A stretch of DNA of 55,309 nucleotides from a virus (Duplodnaviria; Caudoviricetes): positions 1-55,309 of the IMG/VR virus record IMGVR_UViG_3300030107_002626. One strand, written 5' to 3'. The notes under the pieces were generated by a model. That model worked only from the letters and a program-made list of their open reading frames with translations, searched no databases and was not told where the DNA came from. Both the position numbers and the translations under genes were made by a program. How positions within the stretch are numbered: the stretch's first letter is position 1; each line of letters starts with the position of its first letter. Of this stretch, positions 5,779 to 47,565 are shown in pieces.

Positions 5779-6100
5779 TGTAATCAAGGTTCTCGGGCAG
5801 GTCGATGTAAGCGCGACCACTATAACTACTTTGTATTCAGTCCCGGACCTTACTCAGACTACCTGCAGTTCTCTTGTTGTATGCAACAGAGGCGGATCTG
5901 GAATTACGTTCCGGGTGAGCGTACACGTTAACAATGCCTCAGCAGATGATAAGCAGTTTATTTTTTATGACGAAGACTTGGCAGCTACCACAACAAGAAC
6001 CGTGGTGATTGGCTTGTGCTTGGGTCAGAAGGACGTGGTAAAAGTTTATTCAAGCGCGGCTAATGTCAGCTTTAACCTATTCGGCGTAGAGACAAGTTAG
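5771..6100 (+). CDS. Hypothetical virion protein
   Basis: 109-aa beta-rich ORF with GTG start, coupled. Confidence 0.7.
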   Translation: MADVIKVLGQVDVSATTITTLYSVPDLTQTTCSSLVVCNRGGSGITFRVSVHVNNASADDKQFIFYDEDLAATTTRTVVIGLCLGQKDVVKVYSSAANVSFNLFGVETS

Positions 6101-29978: not shown

Positions 29979-31022
29979 TTATTGATCCTTATTGTCCCGT
30001 AGGACGAGGTCGGTTTTTAGGATGCCAATTTCGGCGTTACCGGGTGCACAATCCTGCACCCATGTGCGGGTCTTGCCTTTGTTGGGGCCTGACTTGAGTG
30101 GCTTTGCGAAGTGTCGCCAATGCCCTGCTCGGAAGTGCTTACGCACCGTGCCGGGTGCCCGGGCAGTTGATTCGCCGCGAGGATCAGGCTCCGGGCTAAG
30201 GTCGCGCTCGATCACAACGTGTTCAAACTTTGGATACTTGTGCCCGTGAACAGGCTTAATCTTCCGCTCGGATGAGGGCTTCAGTCCCCGGTAGGTGGTG
30301 GTCTTCGCCGTGCGGCTGTTAATCATCTCCCACCAACTGAGAAACATATCCACGAGACTAGGGAGCAATTTTCCTGCGTCATCTAAGGGATTGCCTAGCC
30401 ACGCTGAAATGTAGGTCGGCTCGATGTCATCTGTGATTTTGAAGTGCACCTCGACTGGTAGCGGCCAAATGTCTGGCGACTGATACACGTAGTAGTTGAC
30501 GGAGATGAATTGCTCATCGGGCTCGACGCTCAGTTCTGGATAGCCTTCTTCGACAGTCCGATACTCCGCGAACATCAAGACCGTGGTTTCGCCATTCTCG
30601 CTGTGGAGGGTGGTGCTGATCGTGACCCACGGAAATGGCAAGCGCAGCGGCGTGGTTGGGATCGTGCTTGGGTCTCTATCCCAGCAATGATCTTTCGACA
30701 GGCTTGGAGTTGTGTACTTCATCCCGCTTCGGACGGCGCAGGCAACAGCGTCTTCAGTCTGAAAGCTCATCCACTTGATTGCCTCAGATTCGGCATGGCC
30801 TCTGTCTCGATGTGAAACAAACTTCATGTGAACCCAATAGTCTGTGATGCTTTTAAGCATCCGGCCAAAGGGCGTTGCGTCATCCACAATGATTGTTTCG
30901 ATGTCGCCATCGCTGGCAGTGATGGCCTTGATCTCAAACTCTGCCATCTTCGCGATCTGGTCATGCAGTCTCATCAGCGAATGGAACTCTCGCCCCAGAC
31001 CGACATCTTTTTTCCTGCTCAT
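29979..31022 (-). CDS. Hypothetical phage protein with C-terminal HxRxGHWR motif
   Basis: 347 aa; RKHFRAGHWRHF..TWV; CTAGGAGG RBS. Confidence 0.8.
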   Translation of the reverse strand: MSRKKDVGLGREFHSLMRLHDQIAKMAEFEIKAITASDGDIETIIVDDATPFGRMLKSITDYWVHMKFVSHRDRGHAESEAIKWMSFQTEDAVACAVRSGMKYTTPSLSKDHCWDRDPSTIPTTPLRLPFPWVTISTTLHSENGETTVLMFAEYRTVEEGYPELSVEPDEQFISVNYYVYQSPDIWPLPVEVHFKITDDIEPTYISAWLGNPLDDAGKLLPSLVDMFLSWWEMINSRTAKTTTYRGLKPSSERKIKPVHGHKYPKFEHVVIERDLSPEPDPRGESTARAPGTVRKHFRAGHWRHFAKPLKSGPNKGKTRTWVQDCAPGNAEIGILKTDLVLRDNKDQ

Positions 31023-31042
31023 TTTGAACCTCCTAGTTGGTT

Positions 31043-31109
31043 GGATTCCACGGAACCCACCGTAGCGGTGGGTTTTCGCCCGGTTTCCCTCCGGGTCTCG
31101 TCAGCGTGG
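31043..31109 (-). ncRNA. Hammerhead ribozyme, type I (HHR5)
   Basis: ccacg CUGACGA g-a-cccgg agggaaa ccggg-c GAAA acccaccg cua cggugggu UC^ cgugg aaucc; cleavage 31053/31052. Confidence 0.9.
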
Positions 31110-31110
31110 T

Positions 31111-31254
31111 TCATGCTTCGATGATTTGAAAATCAAAGATCTCCCGAATCTTTTGAACTGCCTCCAAGCACTCGCTGTAGCTGCCTTGAATGTCTGACTC
31201 AAACCATTCTGAGTGCAAGTAGTCCCGCTCGCGAAGGTTAACGACGTAATACAT
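31111..31254 (-). CDS. Small hypothetical protein (47 aa, not in ORF track)
   Basis: GGAG RBS; MYYVVNLRERDYLHSEWFESDIQGSYSECLEAVQKIREIFDFQIIEA*; stop 1 nt before HHR5. Confidence 0.6.
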   Translation of the reverse strand: MYYVVNLRERDYLHSEWFESDIQGSYSECLEAVQKIREIFDFQIIEA

Positions 31255-31335
31255 ATTTGATGCTCCATATTTATGGGGGGGTTGCCCCCCCAGTAAGTGA
31301 TAGAAAAGTTTTCTGCAAGGCTTTGGGAAAATCTA

Positions 31336-32745
31336 TCAGTCGACGTGAATGATCTCCCCGAACTGCTCGCACCCGTAAAAATACGGATCGCTGAGATTGG
31401 TAACCCAAAACACAGGATAATCCGGTGTCTCAAAGTCCCTTCCTCCTGCGGGATCATTGGGGCCGACCCAACCCTCGCCGTCTGTAAAGTAGATCAGCGC
31501 ATGCAGGTCGATCTCTTCCGCATCAACCCAGTTGAACACTGGGGTGAAGGACGTGCCGCCGCCACCGTAGAACGCAATCTCGACATCCTCGCCGCGCTCG
31601 TACTCTTGAGTGTGCTGCACCGAGTCGTCGCAATAGACAACATGCGTTTTAATCGGATCGATCTCCGCAACAATGTCGTTGATGTGAGAAGCGTAGACGG
31701 CTAACTCATCATCGGTGAGTGACATAGATGTATCCACGGCAACGACCAGCACGCCGTTAGGCTCCTGCTGAGAGTCCGGCAGGATCAGACCCTGATGAAT
31801 CAGGCGTCGATCTGGCGTCGAGTAGCATTCCTCGCCGGGCACGGTATCGTGCAAGGCACCGGCCAGAATCTCATGCCAAGGCTGCGGGTCACGGCGTTGT
31901 GCGTCGAGAACGTTGCGTAACCATCCTCCGCTGCCATGACCCTGATGCTTGTCATGTTGGCGCTGGACCTGTGCTGCCTGTTGATTGAGCGAATCAATCT
32001 CGACCTGCTCGATGATCTGCTCGTCCTCGCTGAGCGCATTGCCGTCATCGTTGACTCCGTCGAGGACTTCACCCCAACCACCTGAGCCGCTCGGCGTATC
32101 ACCGGAACCATTGTTCGGCTCGCCATCGGGATCGCCTGAACCGTCGACTGGATACCCTCCGGGATACCCTCCGGGGCCACGGGGCTTGCCCTCGCCATCA
32201 TCGTTACCCGATTGGCCGTCAGACGGATCGCCTTCAGACTGCTCGGAATCAGCGCCAGACTGCTCGGTCTCGACGGGGTGATGGGCCTGCTCATTACCCG
32301 GTTGGTTGCCGGGCTGATCGCCGGGCTGGTTACCGGGCTCATCTTCCGCAGCCTTTTGATTGGCCGCGAAGTGACGCTCGGCGGACCAGTTATCCTGCCC
32401 GGGCTCAGGGTACACGCCATCTGCAGGCAGCACGAATCCGGCCTTGCGTAAGAGACCATTGATCGCCTGATCGCAAGCGATGTTCCACGCCTTTTGGTCT
32501 CGGGTGCCACGGCGCAGGTGGTGCCCGTTGTTGACGTGCATGCATTCATGAGCCAGCACGCCAGCAGTCTCGGCAACGCTCAGGGTCTCGACCCATGCCG
32601 GATTGAAAAACAACGACTTGCCGTCAGTCGCCATAGTCTGGGTGACCGTCTCATCAGCCCGGAACGCGAACCGATGCAGTCGGACTGCGAAGTAGGGATG
32701 GTCAGTGACCATGCGCTTTTTGGCTTTGGCGATTTTGTTATCCAT
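31336..32745 (-). CDS. Metallopeptidase-VWA protein (DUF2201-like)
   Basis: TMATDG, HECMH zincin motif, WNIACD..IN, acidic linker, VAVDTSMS MIDAS, GGGGT, YFTDG. Confidence 0.9.
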   Translation of the reverse strand: MDNKIAKAKKRMVTDHPYFAVRLHRFAFRADETVTQTMATDGKSLFFNPAWVETLSVAETAGVLAHECMHVNNGHHLRRGTRDQKAWNIACDQAINGLLRKAGFVLPADGVYPEPGQDNWSAERHFAANQKAAEDEPGNQPGDQPGNQPGNEQAHHPVETEQSGADSEQSEGDPSDGQSGNDDGEGKPRGPGGYPGGYPVDGSGDPDGEPNNGSGDTPSGSGGWGEVLDGVNDDGNALSEDEQIIEQVEIDSLNQQAAQVQRQHDKHQGHGSGGWLRNVLDAQRRDPQPWHEILAGALHDTVPGEECYSTPDRRLIHQGLILPDSQQEPNGVLVVAVDTSMSLTDDELAVYASHINDIVAEIDPIKTHVVYCDDSVQHTQEYERGEDVEIAFYGGGGTSFTPVFNWVDAEEIDLHALIYFTDGEGWVGPNDPAGGRDFETPDYPVFWVTNLSDPYFYGCEQFGEIIHVD

Positions 32746-32763
32746 TTGATGTCTCCTAGTTGT

Positions 32764-32831
32764 TGGATTCCGCAGAGGCCCACCTCCCGGGGCCTTTCAC
32801 GCTGGGGTCCACCCAGCACTCATCAGTGCGG
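32764..32831 (-). ncRNA. Hammerhead ribozyme, type I (HHR4)
   Basis: ccgca CUGAUGA gugcuggg uggac cccagcgu GAAA ggccc cgggaggu gggcc UC^ ugcgg aaucca; cleavage 32775/32774. Confidence 0.87.
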
Positions 32832-33707
32832 TTAGTCGAAGAAACCCGAAAGCTTGCTCACGATCTCCTTGGCCGTGTCAGCGGCCTGCTGGCGCTTGCC
32901 CTCGTCTTCGCGCAGCACCTGCGGGTCCAGATCGCGAAGCTTAAGAAACAGGTCGTTCGACACTGCAGTCAACGCCGGGTCACCCGTCAGGTTGAGGCCG
33001 GGCAGTGCTTCAGCGAGCCGCTCGATTGCCTCGACCGTACTGTCAGCGAACTTGCTCGCACGCTTAGCGCCGTCAGCCTTCGTGCCGTGCCGTTCCATGC
33101 CCTCGATGAACGTGGTCAGCACCTCCGCAACACGCTCACTGACGACCTTGGCCCCGGCTTCGACCTTGGCTGCAACATCCCGCTCGACCTGCTGCCGGAT
33201 CGCGTTCACGCGCTGCTGCGGCAGGTTTACGCGAATGTCATCGCCAGAGGGCAGCGGCATCAACTTATAGCTGATGCTGTAGCGGTTGACGATCTCGGTA
33301 ACGGACGGGTAGTCGTTCTCATCGAAGGCGGCACCCAATCGAATCCTGTCCGCTTCGATGACGGCAGGCCATGTGTCCTGCAGTTCAGACTTCAGTTCCT
33401 CAAGACGGTCAGCTTTTTTCCGCAGAGCAGCCTCAAAACGGTCGAGATTGTCGACGGTGATGAGGTGAACGCCGTCATCCCAAGGCACGGTCCAAAGTCG
33501 CAAAACCGTGTTCCCAACTTGTCCGATGATCTTGTTCAACTCTTTAACCACGGCCTGTTTCGCTAGGCGTTTGGTGACGCGCAGATAACCATCTGCCGCA
33601 GACTTGTCGAAGGTCACCTGATCAGTGATCTCACGGTCGGTGATGCTGTTGTTCCATTTGGTGCAGCGCACCTTGACGAGCATCGCGTTGGTTTGAATCT
33701 TATCCAT
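32832..33707 (-). CDS. DUF3150-like protein (291 aa)
   Basis: Start reset to ATG 33707 after CTAGGAG; TVPWDDG, DYPS, PLP motifs; between the AAA and VWA genes. Confidence 0.7.
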   Translation of the reverse strand: MDKIQTNAMLVKVRCTKWNNSITDREITDQVTFDKSAADGYLRVTKRLAKQAVVKELNKIIGQVGNTVLRLWTVPWDDGVHLITVDNLDRFEAALRKKADRLEELKSELQDTWPAVIEADRIRLGAAFDENDYPSVTEIVNRYSISYKLMPLPSGDDIRVNLPQQRVNAIRQQVERDVAAKVEAGAKVVSERVAEVLTTFIEGMERHGTKADGAKRASKFADSTVEAIERLAEALPGLNLTGDPALTAVSNDLFLKLRDLDPQVLREDEGKRQQAADTAKEIVSKLSGFFD

Positions 33708-33718
33708 TGTTGTTTCTC

Positions 33719-34816
33719 CTAGATTGTTAAATGTTGAGTGTCGAGTTTGAACTGCACGAAGGACTCGCACGCCTTCAGGTCGCTGTCACGATTGCCTGCG
33801 ATCATGAAGAACACTGACAGCAGTTCCTCGTTGATCCGCTTCAGGTAGCTGGCTGCGTTGTCGATGTTTCCGATGTCGCAACGCTGCGCGAGGATCATGG
33901 TGATGGCGTAATGCGTCGCCAGTTCCCGCTCACCCGGCACGTCAACGCTGTCGGGGTCTGAGAGGATCAGCCCAGCGTCCGGGAGTGCCCTGACGATGCT
34001 CAGGAACCCGGCGAACTCACTGCCAGCACCAACGCCCACTGCACCGTTGATCGCGATCTGCTCAAGCAATCGAGGCAGACCGGATCGAAGGATCTCGCTC
34101 ACTGCCTCCCAAGTCCTAGGCGTTGCCGCCGTGACGTGACCCTTTGGTATGCCGCCGTCCGGGTATTCGTGGAGCATGCCTGCCTGATCAACCTCGCCGT
34201 TGCCGTCGAGGACAGGACGGCCACGCGCTGCTAGGAAGGCGATGACTTCAGGTGCCCAACCTGCAGATGTGGCGTACTCGATGAACGGCGTGAGCGCCGG
34301 AACGATGTTCAGGTGCGTGCCAAAGCGCGTCAGCAGGGCCGCATCCTGTCGTCCGTGTACACCTGCCCCATCGCATGGGCGATTGCTCGCGACGATCACT
34401 CGCCACCCGGGAGGCAGGATGTAGTCACCGAGGCAACCATCATTGACCAGTTGGTAGCACGCCGCTTGCGACTGCTGAGCGCCGAGCAGCATCTCATCCA
34501 TGAGGAGCAGACCAAACTCACCGTCACGCTCGACGCGAGGTAGCCACCCCGGTAGCTTGAACTCGGTGAAATCGCCGACGATGTCGGGAATGCCGCGAGT
34601 GTCTACTGCTTGGAGTTGAGACAAACGGGCATCGATCAGGCCCCACTGCTGCCCGGTCTGCTCGCTCAGGCTCGCAACCACGGACCGAACGATGCTGGAC
34701 TTGCCGACCCCAAACGGGCCCCACAGGAACACGGGGCGTATGTCGCGAGGCACAAGTGCCTCGATGATTGTCGCGGCCTGTTCAAGGGTCGCGTCAGGAA
34801 TGTTTGAAAATGACAT
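33719..34816 (-). CDS. MoxR-like AAA+ ATPase (365 aa)
   Basis: Start reset to ATG 34816 after CTAGGAG; Walker A GPFGVGKS, Walker B LLLMDE, VASNR, ALLTRF, TPRTW. Confidence 0.9.
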   Translation of the reverse strand: MSFSNIPDATLEQAATIIEALVPRDIRPVFLWGPFGVGKSSIVRSVVASLSEQTGQQWGLIDARLSQLQAVDTRGIPDIVGDFTEFKLPGWLPRVERDGEFGLLLMDEMLLGAQQSQAACYQLVNDGCLGDYILPPGWRVIVASNRPCDGAGVHGRQDAALLTRFGTHLNIVPALTPFIEYATSAGWAPEVIAFLAARGRPVLDGNGEVDQAGMLHEYPDGGIPKGHVTAATPRTWEAVSEILRSGLPRLLEQIAINGAVGVGAGSEFAGFLSIVRALPDAGLILSDPDSVDVPGERELATHYAITMILAQRCDIGNIDNAASYLKRINEELLSVFFMIAGNRDSDLKACESFVQFKLDTQHLTI

Positions 34817-34836
34817 ATGAATCTCTCCTAGTTTTT

Positions 34837-34898
34837 GGATTCCACAGACGCCCGTCAGGGCGTTTCGGCCAGTGTCCCGCTGGCACTCATCAGTGTGG
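34837..34898 (-). ncRNA. Hammerhead ribozyme, type I (HHR3)
   Basis: ccaca CUGAUGA g-u-gccag cgggaca cuggc-c GAAA cgccc ugac gggcg UC^ ugugg aaucc; cleavage 34847/34846. Confidence 0.92.
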
Positions 34899-34907
34899 CT
34901 CAACCCG

Positions 34908-35336
34908 TCAATACCAGCGATTAAATCCTGAGAGAGCGGCGTTGATTGGGTAGTCTTCCTGCTTGTTGCTGGGGGCGACCTTGCGGAGGATCGCGTTGAT
35001 GCGACGTGGATCGCCCAGCACCACGTTGTCGCAGCGCGGGTGCTTCGCGAAAAACTCAGCGTGCCGCCGTTCCATCGCGGCATTAGTCAGGCTGGTGCTG
35101 CCAAATGTGTAGCCGTTGATCGTCTCAGGTTGCGGCAGATGCTTGCGTGCCTCGACAATCCCCAGCGCCGCACGGCGCTCAGCGGTGCGCGGCACAATGA
35201 ATTTTTCCCAGCGGCGAGGCCCCTCAATAAACTCGCTGCGCTTCGCCGCGAAGCCTTCGCGCTTCAAGATCTCCAGCGCTCGCTGCTCGGCTGCCGTGAC
35301 CTTTAAGGTCCGCCCGTTCAGTGTGATGGTCTTCAT
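34908..35336 (-). CDS. Hypothetical protein
   Basis: 142 aa; ACTAGGAG RBS; flanked by HHR2 and HHR3. Confidence 0.8.
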   Translation of the reverse strand: MKTITLNGRTLKVTAAEQRALEILKREGFAAKRSEFIEGPRRWEKFIVPRTAERRAALGIVEARKHLPQPETINGYTFGSTSLTNAAMERRHAEFFAKHPRCDNVVLGDPRRINAILRKVAPSNKQEDYPINAALSGFNRWY

Positions 35337-35354
35337 GATGTTCTCCTAGTTTTC

Positions 35355-35417
35355 GGATTCCACAGACGCCCCGGGTGGGGCGTTTCGACTGGTGTCCATC
35401 CAGTCTCATCAGTGTGG
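35355..35417 (-). ncRNA. Hammerhead ribozyme, type I (HHR2)
   Basis: ccaca CUGAUGA gacugg auggaca ccaguc GAAA cgcccc accc ggggcg UC^ ugugg aaucc; cleavage 35365/35364. Confidence 0.93.
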
Positions 35418-35418
35418 G

Positions 35419-35961
35419 TTAGATTGCGGCATACGCCGGGAAGCTTTGCTCTTCTCTGAGAAGGTCTTCCCAGACCGAGTCGATCAAGCGATGCCCCAGC
35501 GCAGCGTTGAAAAAGTCGAGCAGTTCACGAGCGTTTCCGCCGTGTCTCTCGGCGATGATGTCAAATGCTCTGACGACTCCTCTCTGAGCAGTGCTCCGTG
35601 AACAGTTGTACTCACTGGCAGTGAGCGCCGTGAACTGCTCAATGACGAACGAATTGAGTTGCCGGTACGCCAGCAGTGAATCATTGGGCCGACCTTTGTA
35701 GATAAGTTTGGCAAGCACCTGCAGCCTGCGGCGGTTCCGCTCGTAGGTGGCCTGACCGTCGTTCTCATAGCTGCCCTCGACCCACAGGCTGAGGCAGTCG
35801 GCTGCGCGGGTCGTCTGAGCCGCTTGGGTGAGTGCACTGAACCCGACCAGTTCACGCTCGGGCCGGGTGGCACCTGCACTCTTCAGATCGGCAGTGTGAG
35901 AGGCATGCGCCCATTCGATGTCTAGTACCAGATCGTTGGCGATGGTTTGGGTGACGTTCAT
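35419..35961 (-). CDS. Hypothetical protein (first gene of the operon)
   Basis: 180 aa; ACTAGGAG RBS; flanked by HHR1 and HHR2. Confidence 0.8.
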   Translation of the reverse strand: MNVTQTIANDLVLDIEWAHASHTADLKSAGATRPERELVGFSALTQAAQTTRAADCLSLWVEGSYENDGQATYERNRRRLQVLAKLIYKGRPNDSLLAYRQLNSFVIEQFTALTASEYNCSRSTAQRGVVRAFDIIAERHGGNARELLDFFNAALGHRLIDSVWEDLLREEQSFPAYAAI

Positions 35962-35980
35962 GATGTTCTCCTAGTGGTTT

Positions 35981-36033
35981 GCGTTTCGGCCTGCCGTGGC
36001 CCTCGTCAGTGCATCGGCATTAGATGCATACGC
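35981..36033 (-). ncRNA. Hammerhead ribozyme, type III (HHR1)
   Basis: gcg UA^ ugcauc uaaugcc gaugca CUGACGA g-ggcc acggca ggcc GAAA cgc; loop I UGCC complementary to loop II GGCA; cleavage 36029/36028. Confidence 0.88.
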
Positions 36034-36221
36034 TGTACATGCTCTCGCATGTACCGGGGCACTCTGGGTGACATGAGGTCACGCCCCGCGACGGTGTGTA
36101 CGCTTTACGCCTCTCCGGCATTCTTACCGGGTCAAAGGGTGCGCCGGATTCAAACCGGAGGGCCGAGGCCCCATCAAATAGCAGTGATTAAGTAAGTGAG
36201 TAAGTAATGAATGAGATTCGA

Positions 36222-46952: not shown

Positions 46953-47040
46953 TTGACCGCTTGTTCTTTTAATATCTTTCCCCTGACTGTAATGTTCCAA
47001 CTAGAGCATTAGCAGACACTAGCCAAGACAGGAGAAACAC

Positions 47041-47565
47041 ATGGCTAATACCACCTTCACCGGAGCAGTCCGGTCTGAAAACGGCTTTGATGTCGTTTCA
47101 AAAAACAGCACAACCGGAGCGTTTACCACATCCTTTACCCTTGACGGGTCTGGTATGCAGGTTACCCCGGTCTCTCTGGCCGACGCTGCCTCCACAACAT
47201 TGACCGCTGCTGTAAATGGTGGCCGTATAAATCTGGTTGGCGACAACAGCCAAGACAGCACTTATACGCTGCCAGCTCCTGCTGCCGGGGTCTTTTATCG
47301 TTTTGTTTATGCAGGCGCTGCGGCAGATGCTACTGATGCGCTTATTGTTACCCCCGGTAACACAAACTTTTACAAAGGCGGCGTAACCTTTTTGGATACG
47401 GACAACGAAGTAAGTGTTGTGTTCTCCGATGGGAACTCTAATAGCAGCATTCAGATTAATGTTCCTGCAGCTTTCGACATCACGATCATTGGTTTGGATA
47501 CTACCAATTACCAAATCTTTGGGACCGTGACTGGCGCAACTGCTCCCGCGTTTGCTGATCAGTAA
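47041..47565 (+). CDS. Hypothetical structural protein
   Basis: 174 aa; MANTTFTGAVRSENGF, TLPA; beta-rich. Confidence 0.75.
   Translation: MANTTFTGAVRSENGFDVVSKNSTTGAFTTSFTLDGSGMQVTPVSLADAASTTLTAAVNGGRINLVGDNSQDSTYTLPAPAAGVFYRFVYAGAAADATDALIVTPGNTNFYKGGVTFLDTDNEVSVVFSDGNSNSSIQINVPAAFDITIIGLDTTNYQIFGTVTGATAPAFADQ

Follow-up and report, generated by a model that had tools for sequence, protein, structure and literature searches.

Candidate type I hammerhead ribozymes with a loop II / 3' tail pseudoknot between the genes of a marine tailed phage

Four intergenic elements in the virus genome IMGVR_UViG_3300030107_002626 are probably functional type I hammerhead ribozymes that carry a pseudoknot between stems I and II and cut the leftward operon transcript of a marine tailed phage with a genome of roughly 55 kb. 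The sequence that we analyzed, hereafter the window, is the complete IMG/VR record of 55,309 bases, estimated to be 97% complete, and the four elements with their 3' tails lie on its minus strand between positions 31043 and 35417. Every sequence and structure feature of a type I hammerhead is present in them, with minor deviations in stem II, and they fall short only of the Rfam score thresholds. The pseudoknot, which would join loop II to the tail downstream of stem I, is supported by co-changing partners in homologous type I hammerheads collected from other viral contigs.

Sequence and fold of the four elements

Each copy presents the same order of parts, namely a strand of stem I of five nucleotides (nt), the core, the stem II hairpin, GAAA, the stem III hairpin, C17 and the complement of stem I. 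Stems II and III are closed by loops and stem I is open, which is the topology of type I, and the three-way junction is reproduced by minimum free energy (MFE) or centroid folds. The core CUGANGA...GAAA...UC is intact in all four copies, as CUGAUGA in three and CUGACGA in one, and in all four A15.1–U16.1 closes stem III and C17 is the cleavage-site nucleotide. Pairs 1.1–2.1 and 15.1–16.1 are Watson–Crick throughout, while 10.1–11.1 is G–C in three copies and a G–U wobble in the copy labeled HH_32k. In terms of the criterion given by Perreault et al. (2011, PLoS Comput Biol, PMC3088659), no copy has a mispair beside the core; the wobble in HH_32k and the bulge at 10.2 in HH_31k and HH_34k are deviations rather than mispairs.

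HH_35k (35360..35417, minus strand, as are all coordinates of the four copies) combines stem I CCACA/UGUGG and the core CUGAUGA with a stem II of 6 base pairs (bp) capped by the loop AUGGACA and, after GAAA, a 7-bp stem III. Cleavage is predicted 3' of C 35365, and the MFE structure of this copy is the hammerhead fold, with a z score of -2.83. HH_34k (34842..34898) has the same stem I, a bulged U beside G10.1–C11.1 in stem II and the loop CGGGACA, and its predicted cleavage site is 3' of C 34847. The stem I of HH_32k (32770..32831) is CCGCA/UGCGG; its stem II opens with two G–U wobbles and ends in the loop UGGAC, and cleavage is expected 3' of C 32775. In HH_31k (31048..31109) CCACG pairs with CGUGG, the core is CUGACGA, stem II has a bulged A and the loop AGGGAAA, stem III reaches 9 bp, and the RNA would be cut 3' of C 31053.

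The copies are 50–75% identical in pairwise comparisons. In an alignment of the four (A5), guided by an independent covariance model, the 15 nested pairs are paired in 60/60 cells, and 7 of the 15 have changed on both sides (two in stem I, three in stem II and two in stem III). When the pseudoknot is included, the whole structure of 19 pairs is 97.3% paired in register compared with 22–38% in slid registers. A first-pass annotation of this DNA had listed the stem I sequences of the four copies, had noted that the stems vary yet stay paired, and had taken the copies to be selected for function rather than recently duplicated. The stem I sequences are as it claimed, on the minus strand, the pairing of the variable stems is complete in the alignment, and selection rather than recent duplication agrees with the level of identity and with seven fully compensated stem pairs against none broken.

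The copies were also scored with a covariance model, R1, derived from 73 type I hammerheads of other viral contigs and containing no window sequence. Run over the whole window with filters off, R1 assigned 73.5 bits to HH_35k, 72.7 to HH_34k, 55.3 to HH_31k and 52.3 to HH_32k, with rough E values of 5e-21 to 3e-14. The next-best match in the 55 kb, with 13.8 bits, corresponds to the core of a type III element, the fifth hammerhead, which is described below. A loose pattern of the hammerhead in the degenerate IUPAC (International Union of Pure and Applied Chemistry) code is not enriched in the window (27 overlapping matches vs 15.3 expected, with 27 reached by 12 of 100 shuffles); only structure-aware tests are informative.

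Pairing between loop II and the 3' tail

In 4/4 window copies GGA in loop II is complementary to UCC in the tail, over 3–4 bp. The partners are located at 35395..35397 (GGA) and 35355..35359 (AAUCC) in HH_35k, where U 35398 can add a U–G pair with G 35354; at 34875..34877 and 34837..34841 in HH_34k; at 32808..32810 and 32765..32769 in HH_32k, where U 32811 pairs with A 32764 to give 4 bp; and at 31086..31088 and 31043..31047 in HH_31k. The first-pass annotation had reported a GGA in every loop II and an AAUCC after every stem I and had proposed that the two form a pseudoknot. Both sequence observations are correct, with AAUCC directly after stem I in all four copies, and the proposed pairing is supported by the homologues.

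Since no close relative of the window was obtained by protein synteny or blastn, we relied on motif scans of IMG/VR. A blastn search of 30900–36100 against GenBank phages gave no match, and a synteny search of viral contigs with the 365-amino-acid (aa) ATPase encoded in the same gene block confirmed no relative. In the first motif scan the core and part of stem I were fixed and the tail was left free (at least 117 stretches); in the second the tail GGAAUCC was fixed and loop II was free (57 stretches); in the third a common stem III was fixed while stem I, loop II and the tail were free (at least 119 stretches). The resulting homologue sets are samples rather than censuses, and all family counts refer to these sampled matches. 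Candidates passed a structure filter if they had the core, a stable hairpin at stem II, at least 4 bp in stem I and at least 3 bp in stem III. From the window and 290 sampled loci, 221 type I hammerheads passed, 189 of them distinct, and many contigs hold several. A scan of genome contigs with the family pattern yielded none accepted by the filter among at least 120 listed stretches.

A blastn search of one copy against GenBank phages gave eight weak partial matches. The two that we opened, in Rhodovulum phage RS1 and Alteromonadaceae phage B23, were considered as family members and rejected, as they are type II hammerheads; R1 found no convincing type I hammerhead in these two genomes, the best score being 16.2 bits. 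The two type II elements are unannotated and intergenic, lie in Mu-like marine phages at about 5996–6055 of RS1 (JF974307.1) and about 5953–6012 of B23 (KY939598.1), and surfaced as partial matches to the stem III region of the window copy. Their elements follow the order GAAAC, stem III hairpin, GUC, stem I hairpin, CUGAUGA or CUGACGA.

Tail and loop go together among the sampled hammerheads. GGA is present in loop II of 41/42 distinct hammerheads with an AAUCC tail, compared with only 5/103 among hammerheads with a different tail and a loop of 5 nt or more. Hammerheads with other tails tend to carry the complementary loop instead: the tail ACC is accompanied by the loop GGU in 20 of 23, GCC by GGC in 26 of 34, GUC by GAC in 5 of 6, UUC by GAA in 3 of 4 and CCC by GGG in 4 of 6. 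The match is weaker for AUC with GAU (1 of 5) and for ACU with AGU (2 of 6).

The association was also assessed with an alignment-free test on 103 hammerheads from the two scans that do not bias the tail, in which we measured the longest Watson–Crick run that loop II can form with nucleotides 1–8 of the tail. The mean longest run was 3.53, compared with 2.55±0.08 when the tails were permuted (maximum 2.81 in 2000 permutations). Runs of at least 4 bp were found in 54/103 hammerheads where 13.6 were expected (maximum 24 in the permutations). The controls were also lower when G–U pairs were allowed; they used the tail in reverse, the 8 nt that precede stem I, and positions 13–20 of the tail.

A third assessment used a MAFFT alignment (A3) of 77 rows, comprising 76 distinct hammerheads and the window copy with a 5-nt loop. 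The 76 were selected for a 7-nt loop II, a stem I of 4–6 bp and a tail of at least 12 nt; the remaining 113, whose loops differ in length, were excluded. A helix of five pairs between columns 25–29 and columns 81–85 is paired in 74.5% of cells, compared with 58.6±1.4% after shuffling (0/500 shuffles reached the observed value) and with 23.9–48.3% in slid registers. Cells changed on both sides number 66 vs 23.4±3.7 in shuffled data (again 0/500), and the covariation score is 0.434 vs 0.159±0.018. The central variable pair takes all four Watson–Crick forms, A–U in 31 rows, U–A in 16, G–C in 11 and C–G in 7. Two further measures are less decisive: 227/500 shuffles attained the number of pairs that changed on both sides, and 12/500 attained the number of further pair types. 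Among the 51 rows that come from the tail-unbiased scans, 184/255 cells are paired compared with 138.2±4.7 after shuffling (maximum 154 in 2000).

A feature outside the tail is seen in many phage type I hammerheads: an additional nucleotide, usually U, separates A9 from the first G–C pair of stem II (CUGAUGA-U-GGC...). HH_31k and HH_34k differ from this pattern in that their bulged nucleotide comes just after G10.1.

Gene block, leaders and mosaic junctions

The window belongs to a tailed phage as judged from PHROGs matches to large and small terminase, portal, major head protein, tail fibre, a primase/helicase, a Sak-like annealing protein and an exonuclease. Its DNA is present in marine metagenome runs, and the runs listed as containing it include none of RNA. 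The minus-strand gene block that contains all four type I hammerheads extends from about position 36,000 to about 29,700 and encodes, in order, a 180-aa protein, a 142-aa protein, the 365-aa ATPase (phrog_1297), a 291-aa protein, a 469-aa DUF2201 metallopeptidase/VWA-like protein (PF13203 and PF09967) and a 347-aa protein. Four intergenic gaps of the block each hold one complete copy on the minus strand. HH_32k starts right after the stop codon of the 291-aa gene (32832–32834), with a gap of 0 nt; HH_35k follows its upstream stop after 1 nt and HH_34k after 9 nt; for HH_31k the gap is 1 nt only if a 47-aa open reading frame at 31111–31254 is real.

In the four copies, 28, 30, 29 and 30 nt separate the predicted cleavage site from the ATG that follows. 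Within this leader the stem I strand comes first, followed by AAUCC, 5–6 nt of A-rich spacer, CUAGGAG and a second, short spacer. In HH_35k the tail is followed by GAAAA, CUAGGAG at 35343–35349 and the ATG of the 142-aa gene at 35334–35336; in HH_34k by AAAAA, CUAGGAG at 34825–34831 and the ATG of the ATPase gene at 34814–34816; in HH_32k by AACAA, CUAGGAG at 32753–32759 and the ATG of the DUF2201 gene at 32743–32745; and in HH_31k by AACCAA, CUAGGAG at 31030–31036 and the ATG of the 347-aa gene at 31020–31022.

Some neighboring features deserve mention. The possible 47-aa reading frame lies on the minus strand, has GGAG 9 nt upstream of its ATG and would stop 1 nt before HH_31k. It falls within 31111–31335 (minus strand), the interval between the DUF2201 gene and HH_31k, which also contains a G7/C7 hairpin at 31275–31291. 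Upstream of the 180-aa gene, the first of the leftward block, is the fifth hammerhead, of type III (35981–36033, minus strand); its fold is the expected one, and it is not reported by Rfam. Its stem III has 4 bp (GCGU/ACGC), A17 is at 36029, and stems I and II have 6 and 4 bp, respectively. Loop I of this element, UGCC (36016–36019), is complementary to GGCA in loop II (35992–35995), and the type III element may also use a base-paired contact joining stem I to stem II. Elsewhere, Rfam reports a Mu-gpT-DE RNA motif at 46981–47043 on the plus strand, with 50.6 bits against a gathering score of 49; its end coincides with the start codon of a 174-aa gene (47041–47565), just downstream of the major head protein gene.

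We compared DNA contigs of four marine metagenome runs (X2, X3, X4 and X5) with the window. Matches of these contigs end at 35378/35379 in three runs (X2, X3 and X5) and at 35413 in two (X2 and X5); X4 has its ends at 34835 and 34898, and X5 has 187 other letters in place of 35337–35404. The diverging parts again resemble a stem I strand with an AAUUC or UAACC tail. The fact that related contigs stop matching at hammerheads suggests that the elements are positioned at mosaic junctions between gene cassettes.

Among the phage homologues, the 5' strand of stem I is often repeated in the tail, 3–9 nt after stem I, as in CCGUA...UACGG-AAUCCA-CCGUA; examples are the loci L088 (5978–6050), L126, L133 and L140. 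The repeat occurs in 55/188 phage type I hammerheads and in 31/40 distinct hammerheads from loci of the AAUCC-tail scan (32 of these 40 have the AAUCC tail); permuted tails give a mean of 15.8 and a maximum of 27. A 5'-terminal hairpin, made of the 3' strand of stem I and this repeat, could then form in the 3' product after its release. The repeat is absent from all four window copies (0/4). In the open-access literature beyond PMC3088659, a paper accessible in part, we found no description of the 5'-terminal hairpin, of the AAUCC/GGA subfamily or of the regular placement ahead of the Shine–Dalgarno sequence.

These observations lead us to speculate that in marine phages the hammerhead, the AAUCC tail and the leader act as one portable "cistron-insulator" module, which would be more than a bare ribozyme, although we consider this unlikely. 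Such a module would sit at mosaic junctions where relatives carry different genes and would deliver a uniform leader of 28–30 nt to whichever gene comes next. Its tail would serve twice, first as the pseudoknot strand that activates cleavage and, once the mRNA is released, within the 5' end of that mRNA. The 5'-terminal hairpin of the relatives would block re-ligation and could stabilize the mRNA, whereas the window copies would have lost the stem I repeat and run straight into the Shine–Dalgarno sequence, whose GGA can pair with the UCC of the tail.

Competing explanations and relation to known hammerheads

Several points weigh against functional hammerheads with a pseudoknot. No hammerhead is reported in the window at Rfam gathering thresholds; Mu-gpT-DE alone is reported. 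Textbook stem II is departed from in three copies, two with a bulge beside 10.1–11.1 and the third, HH_32k, with G–U wobbles at 10.1–11.1 and 10.2–11.2. The four window copies have identical GGA:UCC pairs at all three positions, so that the window alone shows conservation rather than covariation and the support for the pseudoknot comes from relatives. The helices in the window are short, with 3 Watson–Crick bp in three copies (to which HH_35k can add its U–G) and 4 bp in HH_32k. One AAUCC-tailed hammerhead, L144, has no GGA in its loop and an 11-bp GC-rich stem II, and loop/tail pairing is missing from some type I hammerheads whose loop is a tetraloop or UGAAAAUU. In the A3 alignment 25.5% of the pseudoknot cells are unpaired, and the shuffle control leaves shared ancestry in.

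The Rfam thresholds are not reached because of the make-up of the Rfam models, as a model of 73 phage type I hammerheads scores the copies at 52–74 bits. The best sub-threshold Rfam match is to RAGATH-1-hammerhead (RF03152), with 29.0 and 26.4 bits on two copies against a gathering score of 56.3, and Hammerhead_3 scores 20.8 bits against 48.5, in the wrong register. RAGATH-1 resembles the window copies in its type I core and in stem II and III hairpins of similar size, and differs in an extra hairpin 5' of stem I. We rejected membership of the copies in RF03152 in view of scores under 56.3 and of this extra 5' hairpin, which is unmatched in them (non-canonical or deleted in the alignment). As for the unpaired cells, MAFFT shifts members of other linker length by one column, and some true pairs are consequently counted as broken. 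Paralogues inside single contigs (L149, L163, L207 and L271) differ in both pseudoknot partners, which points to repeated independent changes. The subclass with the loop II sequence UGAAAAUU has no tail complementarity and would have to use another contact.

It is possible that the hammerheads are real and that a 3-bp GGA:UCC helix is too weak to matter, being a decayed remnant of the 4–5 bp helix of the relatives, in which case cleavage would be slow or would depend on another contact. The window helices have 3, 3, 3 (plus one U–G) and 4 bp, compared with 3 bp in 3, 4 bp in 19 and 5 bp in 16 of the 38 other members of the AAUCC class, so that 35/38 have 4–5 bp. We retain this explanation mainly because the usual extra pair of the relatives, formed by a U after GGA with the second A of the tail, is absent from all four window copies, which have C or A in place of the U. 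GGA and AAUCC are nevertheless invariant in copies that are 50–75% identical and differ at neighboring loop positions, which argues for continued constraint, and three other family members also have only 3 bp; a helix without consequence is in our judgment improbable. We regard it as distinctly less probable still that AAUCC is kept for another reason, such as a role in the translation leader (for example as a weak anti-Shine–Dalgarno sequence) or as a protein or RNase site, with the GGA of loop II merely inherited by descent. AAUCC does lie 5–6 nt upstream of CUAGGAG in 4/4 copies, and when 23–25 nt of downstream sequence are added, the MFE structure pairs the tail UCC with the Shine–Dalgarno GGA in three of the four; in HH_31k the spacer AACC instead pairs with a GGUU that overlaps the Shine–Dalgarno sequence. 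However, the UCC:GGA helix so formed has only 3 bp with an 8-nt loop and is extended by neither flank. In the homologues, moreover, the tail triplet changes together with loop II (ACC/GGU, GCC/GGC, GUC/GAC, UUC/GAA), while the listed downstream ribosome-binding sites stay GGAG-like, sit at other distances or are absent. Because the tail of the relatives follows loop II and not the ribosome-binding site, we interpret the pairing of UCC with the Shine–Dalgarno sequence as a weak alternative.

The mosaic junctions could also be read as a sign that the elements have no function and are relics or scars of recombination where cassettes of a mosaic phage genome meet, with a likeness to hammerheads that would last only because they spread recently. 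This would be in line with contigs of related marine phages whose match to the window is one-sided and breaks off within a hammerhead or at its edge. A position at mosaic junctions is, however, compatible with function, and an intact core in 4/4 copies with seven fully compensated stem changes and none disruptive is a pattern of purifying selection, not of decay. We hold relics to be very improbable, and functional type I hammerheads with a stem I–II pseudoknot remain our preferred interpretation.

Classical extended hammerheads, for example those of Schistosoma and of satellite RNAs, rely on non-Watson–Crick contacts of loop I with loop II or of bulges. They share with the window elements the same core and a tertiary brace between stems I and II that is needed at low Mg2+, a general point made in PMC3088659. 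The difference is that stem I of the window elements has only 5 bp and neither loop nor bulge, and that their brace would be a canonical base-paired pseudoknot. According to the same source, stem I–II pseudoknots are possible in each of the three hammerhead types, in about 40% of representatives; in a type II ribozyme, disruption of the pseudoknot lowers k_obs 20- to more than 100-fold at 0.5 mM Mg2+, and compensation rescues it. The type II pseudoknots, between loop I and the tail after stem II, are the best characterized and resemble those of the window in that a short Watson–Crick helix between a hairpin loop and a strand 3' of the open stem replaces the loop–loop contact. In the window the arrangement is permuted, joining loop II to the strand 3' of the open stem I across an A-rich linker of 1–2 nt, and the helices have 3–4 bp in contrast to "four or more" in most type II motifs. 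The mutational proof published in PMC3088659 concerns type II and a few others, not the AAUCC/GGA subfamily.

Perreault and coworkers also reported thousands of hammerheads, many of them near prophage genes, and gene-flanking clusters that cleave in vitro (PMC3088659), with prophage clusters in Agrobacterium tumefaciens, Azorhizobium caulinodans and Clostridium scindens as examples. The window resembles these clusters in having several hammerheads of mixed types, here four of type I and one of type III, between genes of one phage unit, in the inconstancy of the flanked genes, and in the role proposed for them, the processing of transcripts to mRNAs of single-gene or operon length. It differs in being an uncultured marine phage contig, known here from its sequence, while the published clusters are in named bacteria, and in its very regular placement, 0–9 nt after a stop codon and 28–30 nt before an ATG. 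The hammerhead class, its pseudoknots and its clustering in phage operons have been in print since 2011, and the present finding opens no new question.

The mechanism that we propose is as follows. Stems I, II and III would fold round the conserved core, after which GGA in loop II would pair over 3–4 bp with the UCC that lies two nucleotides 3' of stem I. This pseudoknot would hold stems I and II side by side and so provide the tertiary brace for quick cleavage at cellular Mg2+. Cleavage 3' of C17 would then split the polycistronic transcript into mRNAs of one or two genes, and each downstream mRNA would begin with a 5'-OH and a uniform leader made of the stem I strand, AAUCC, the A-rich spacer and CUAGGAG. 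Our data show the motif, its compensated stems and the joint changes of loop and tail among homologues; self-cleavage, its dependence on the pseudoknot and an effect on expression we infer, and fast cleavage at low Mg2+ through the pseudoknot would be expected by analogy with published mutants of other pseudoknotted hammerheads (PMC3088659). The most likely role would be the cutting of a long phage transcript, as proposed for the prophage hammerhead clusters (PMC3088659), and the 5'-OH leader or the structured 3' end may alter stability or translation.

The pseudoknot emerges as a recurrent, covarying feature of phage type I hammerheads with a loop II of at least 5 nt and is not peculiar to one genome. 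None of the four copies reaches the curated Rfam thresholds, so that annotations of viral metagenomes probably list too few elements of this kind. The four elements are a clean natural case of a way in which phages may divide polycistronic RNA into messages that can be controlled separately, with no protein involved.

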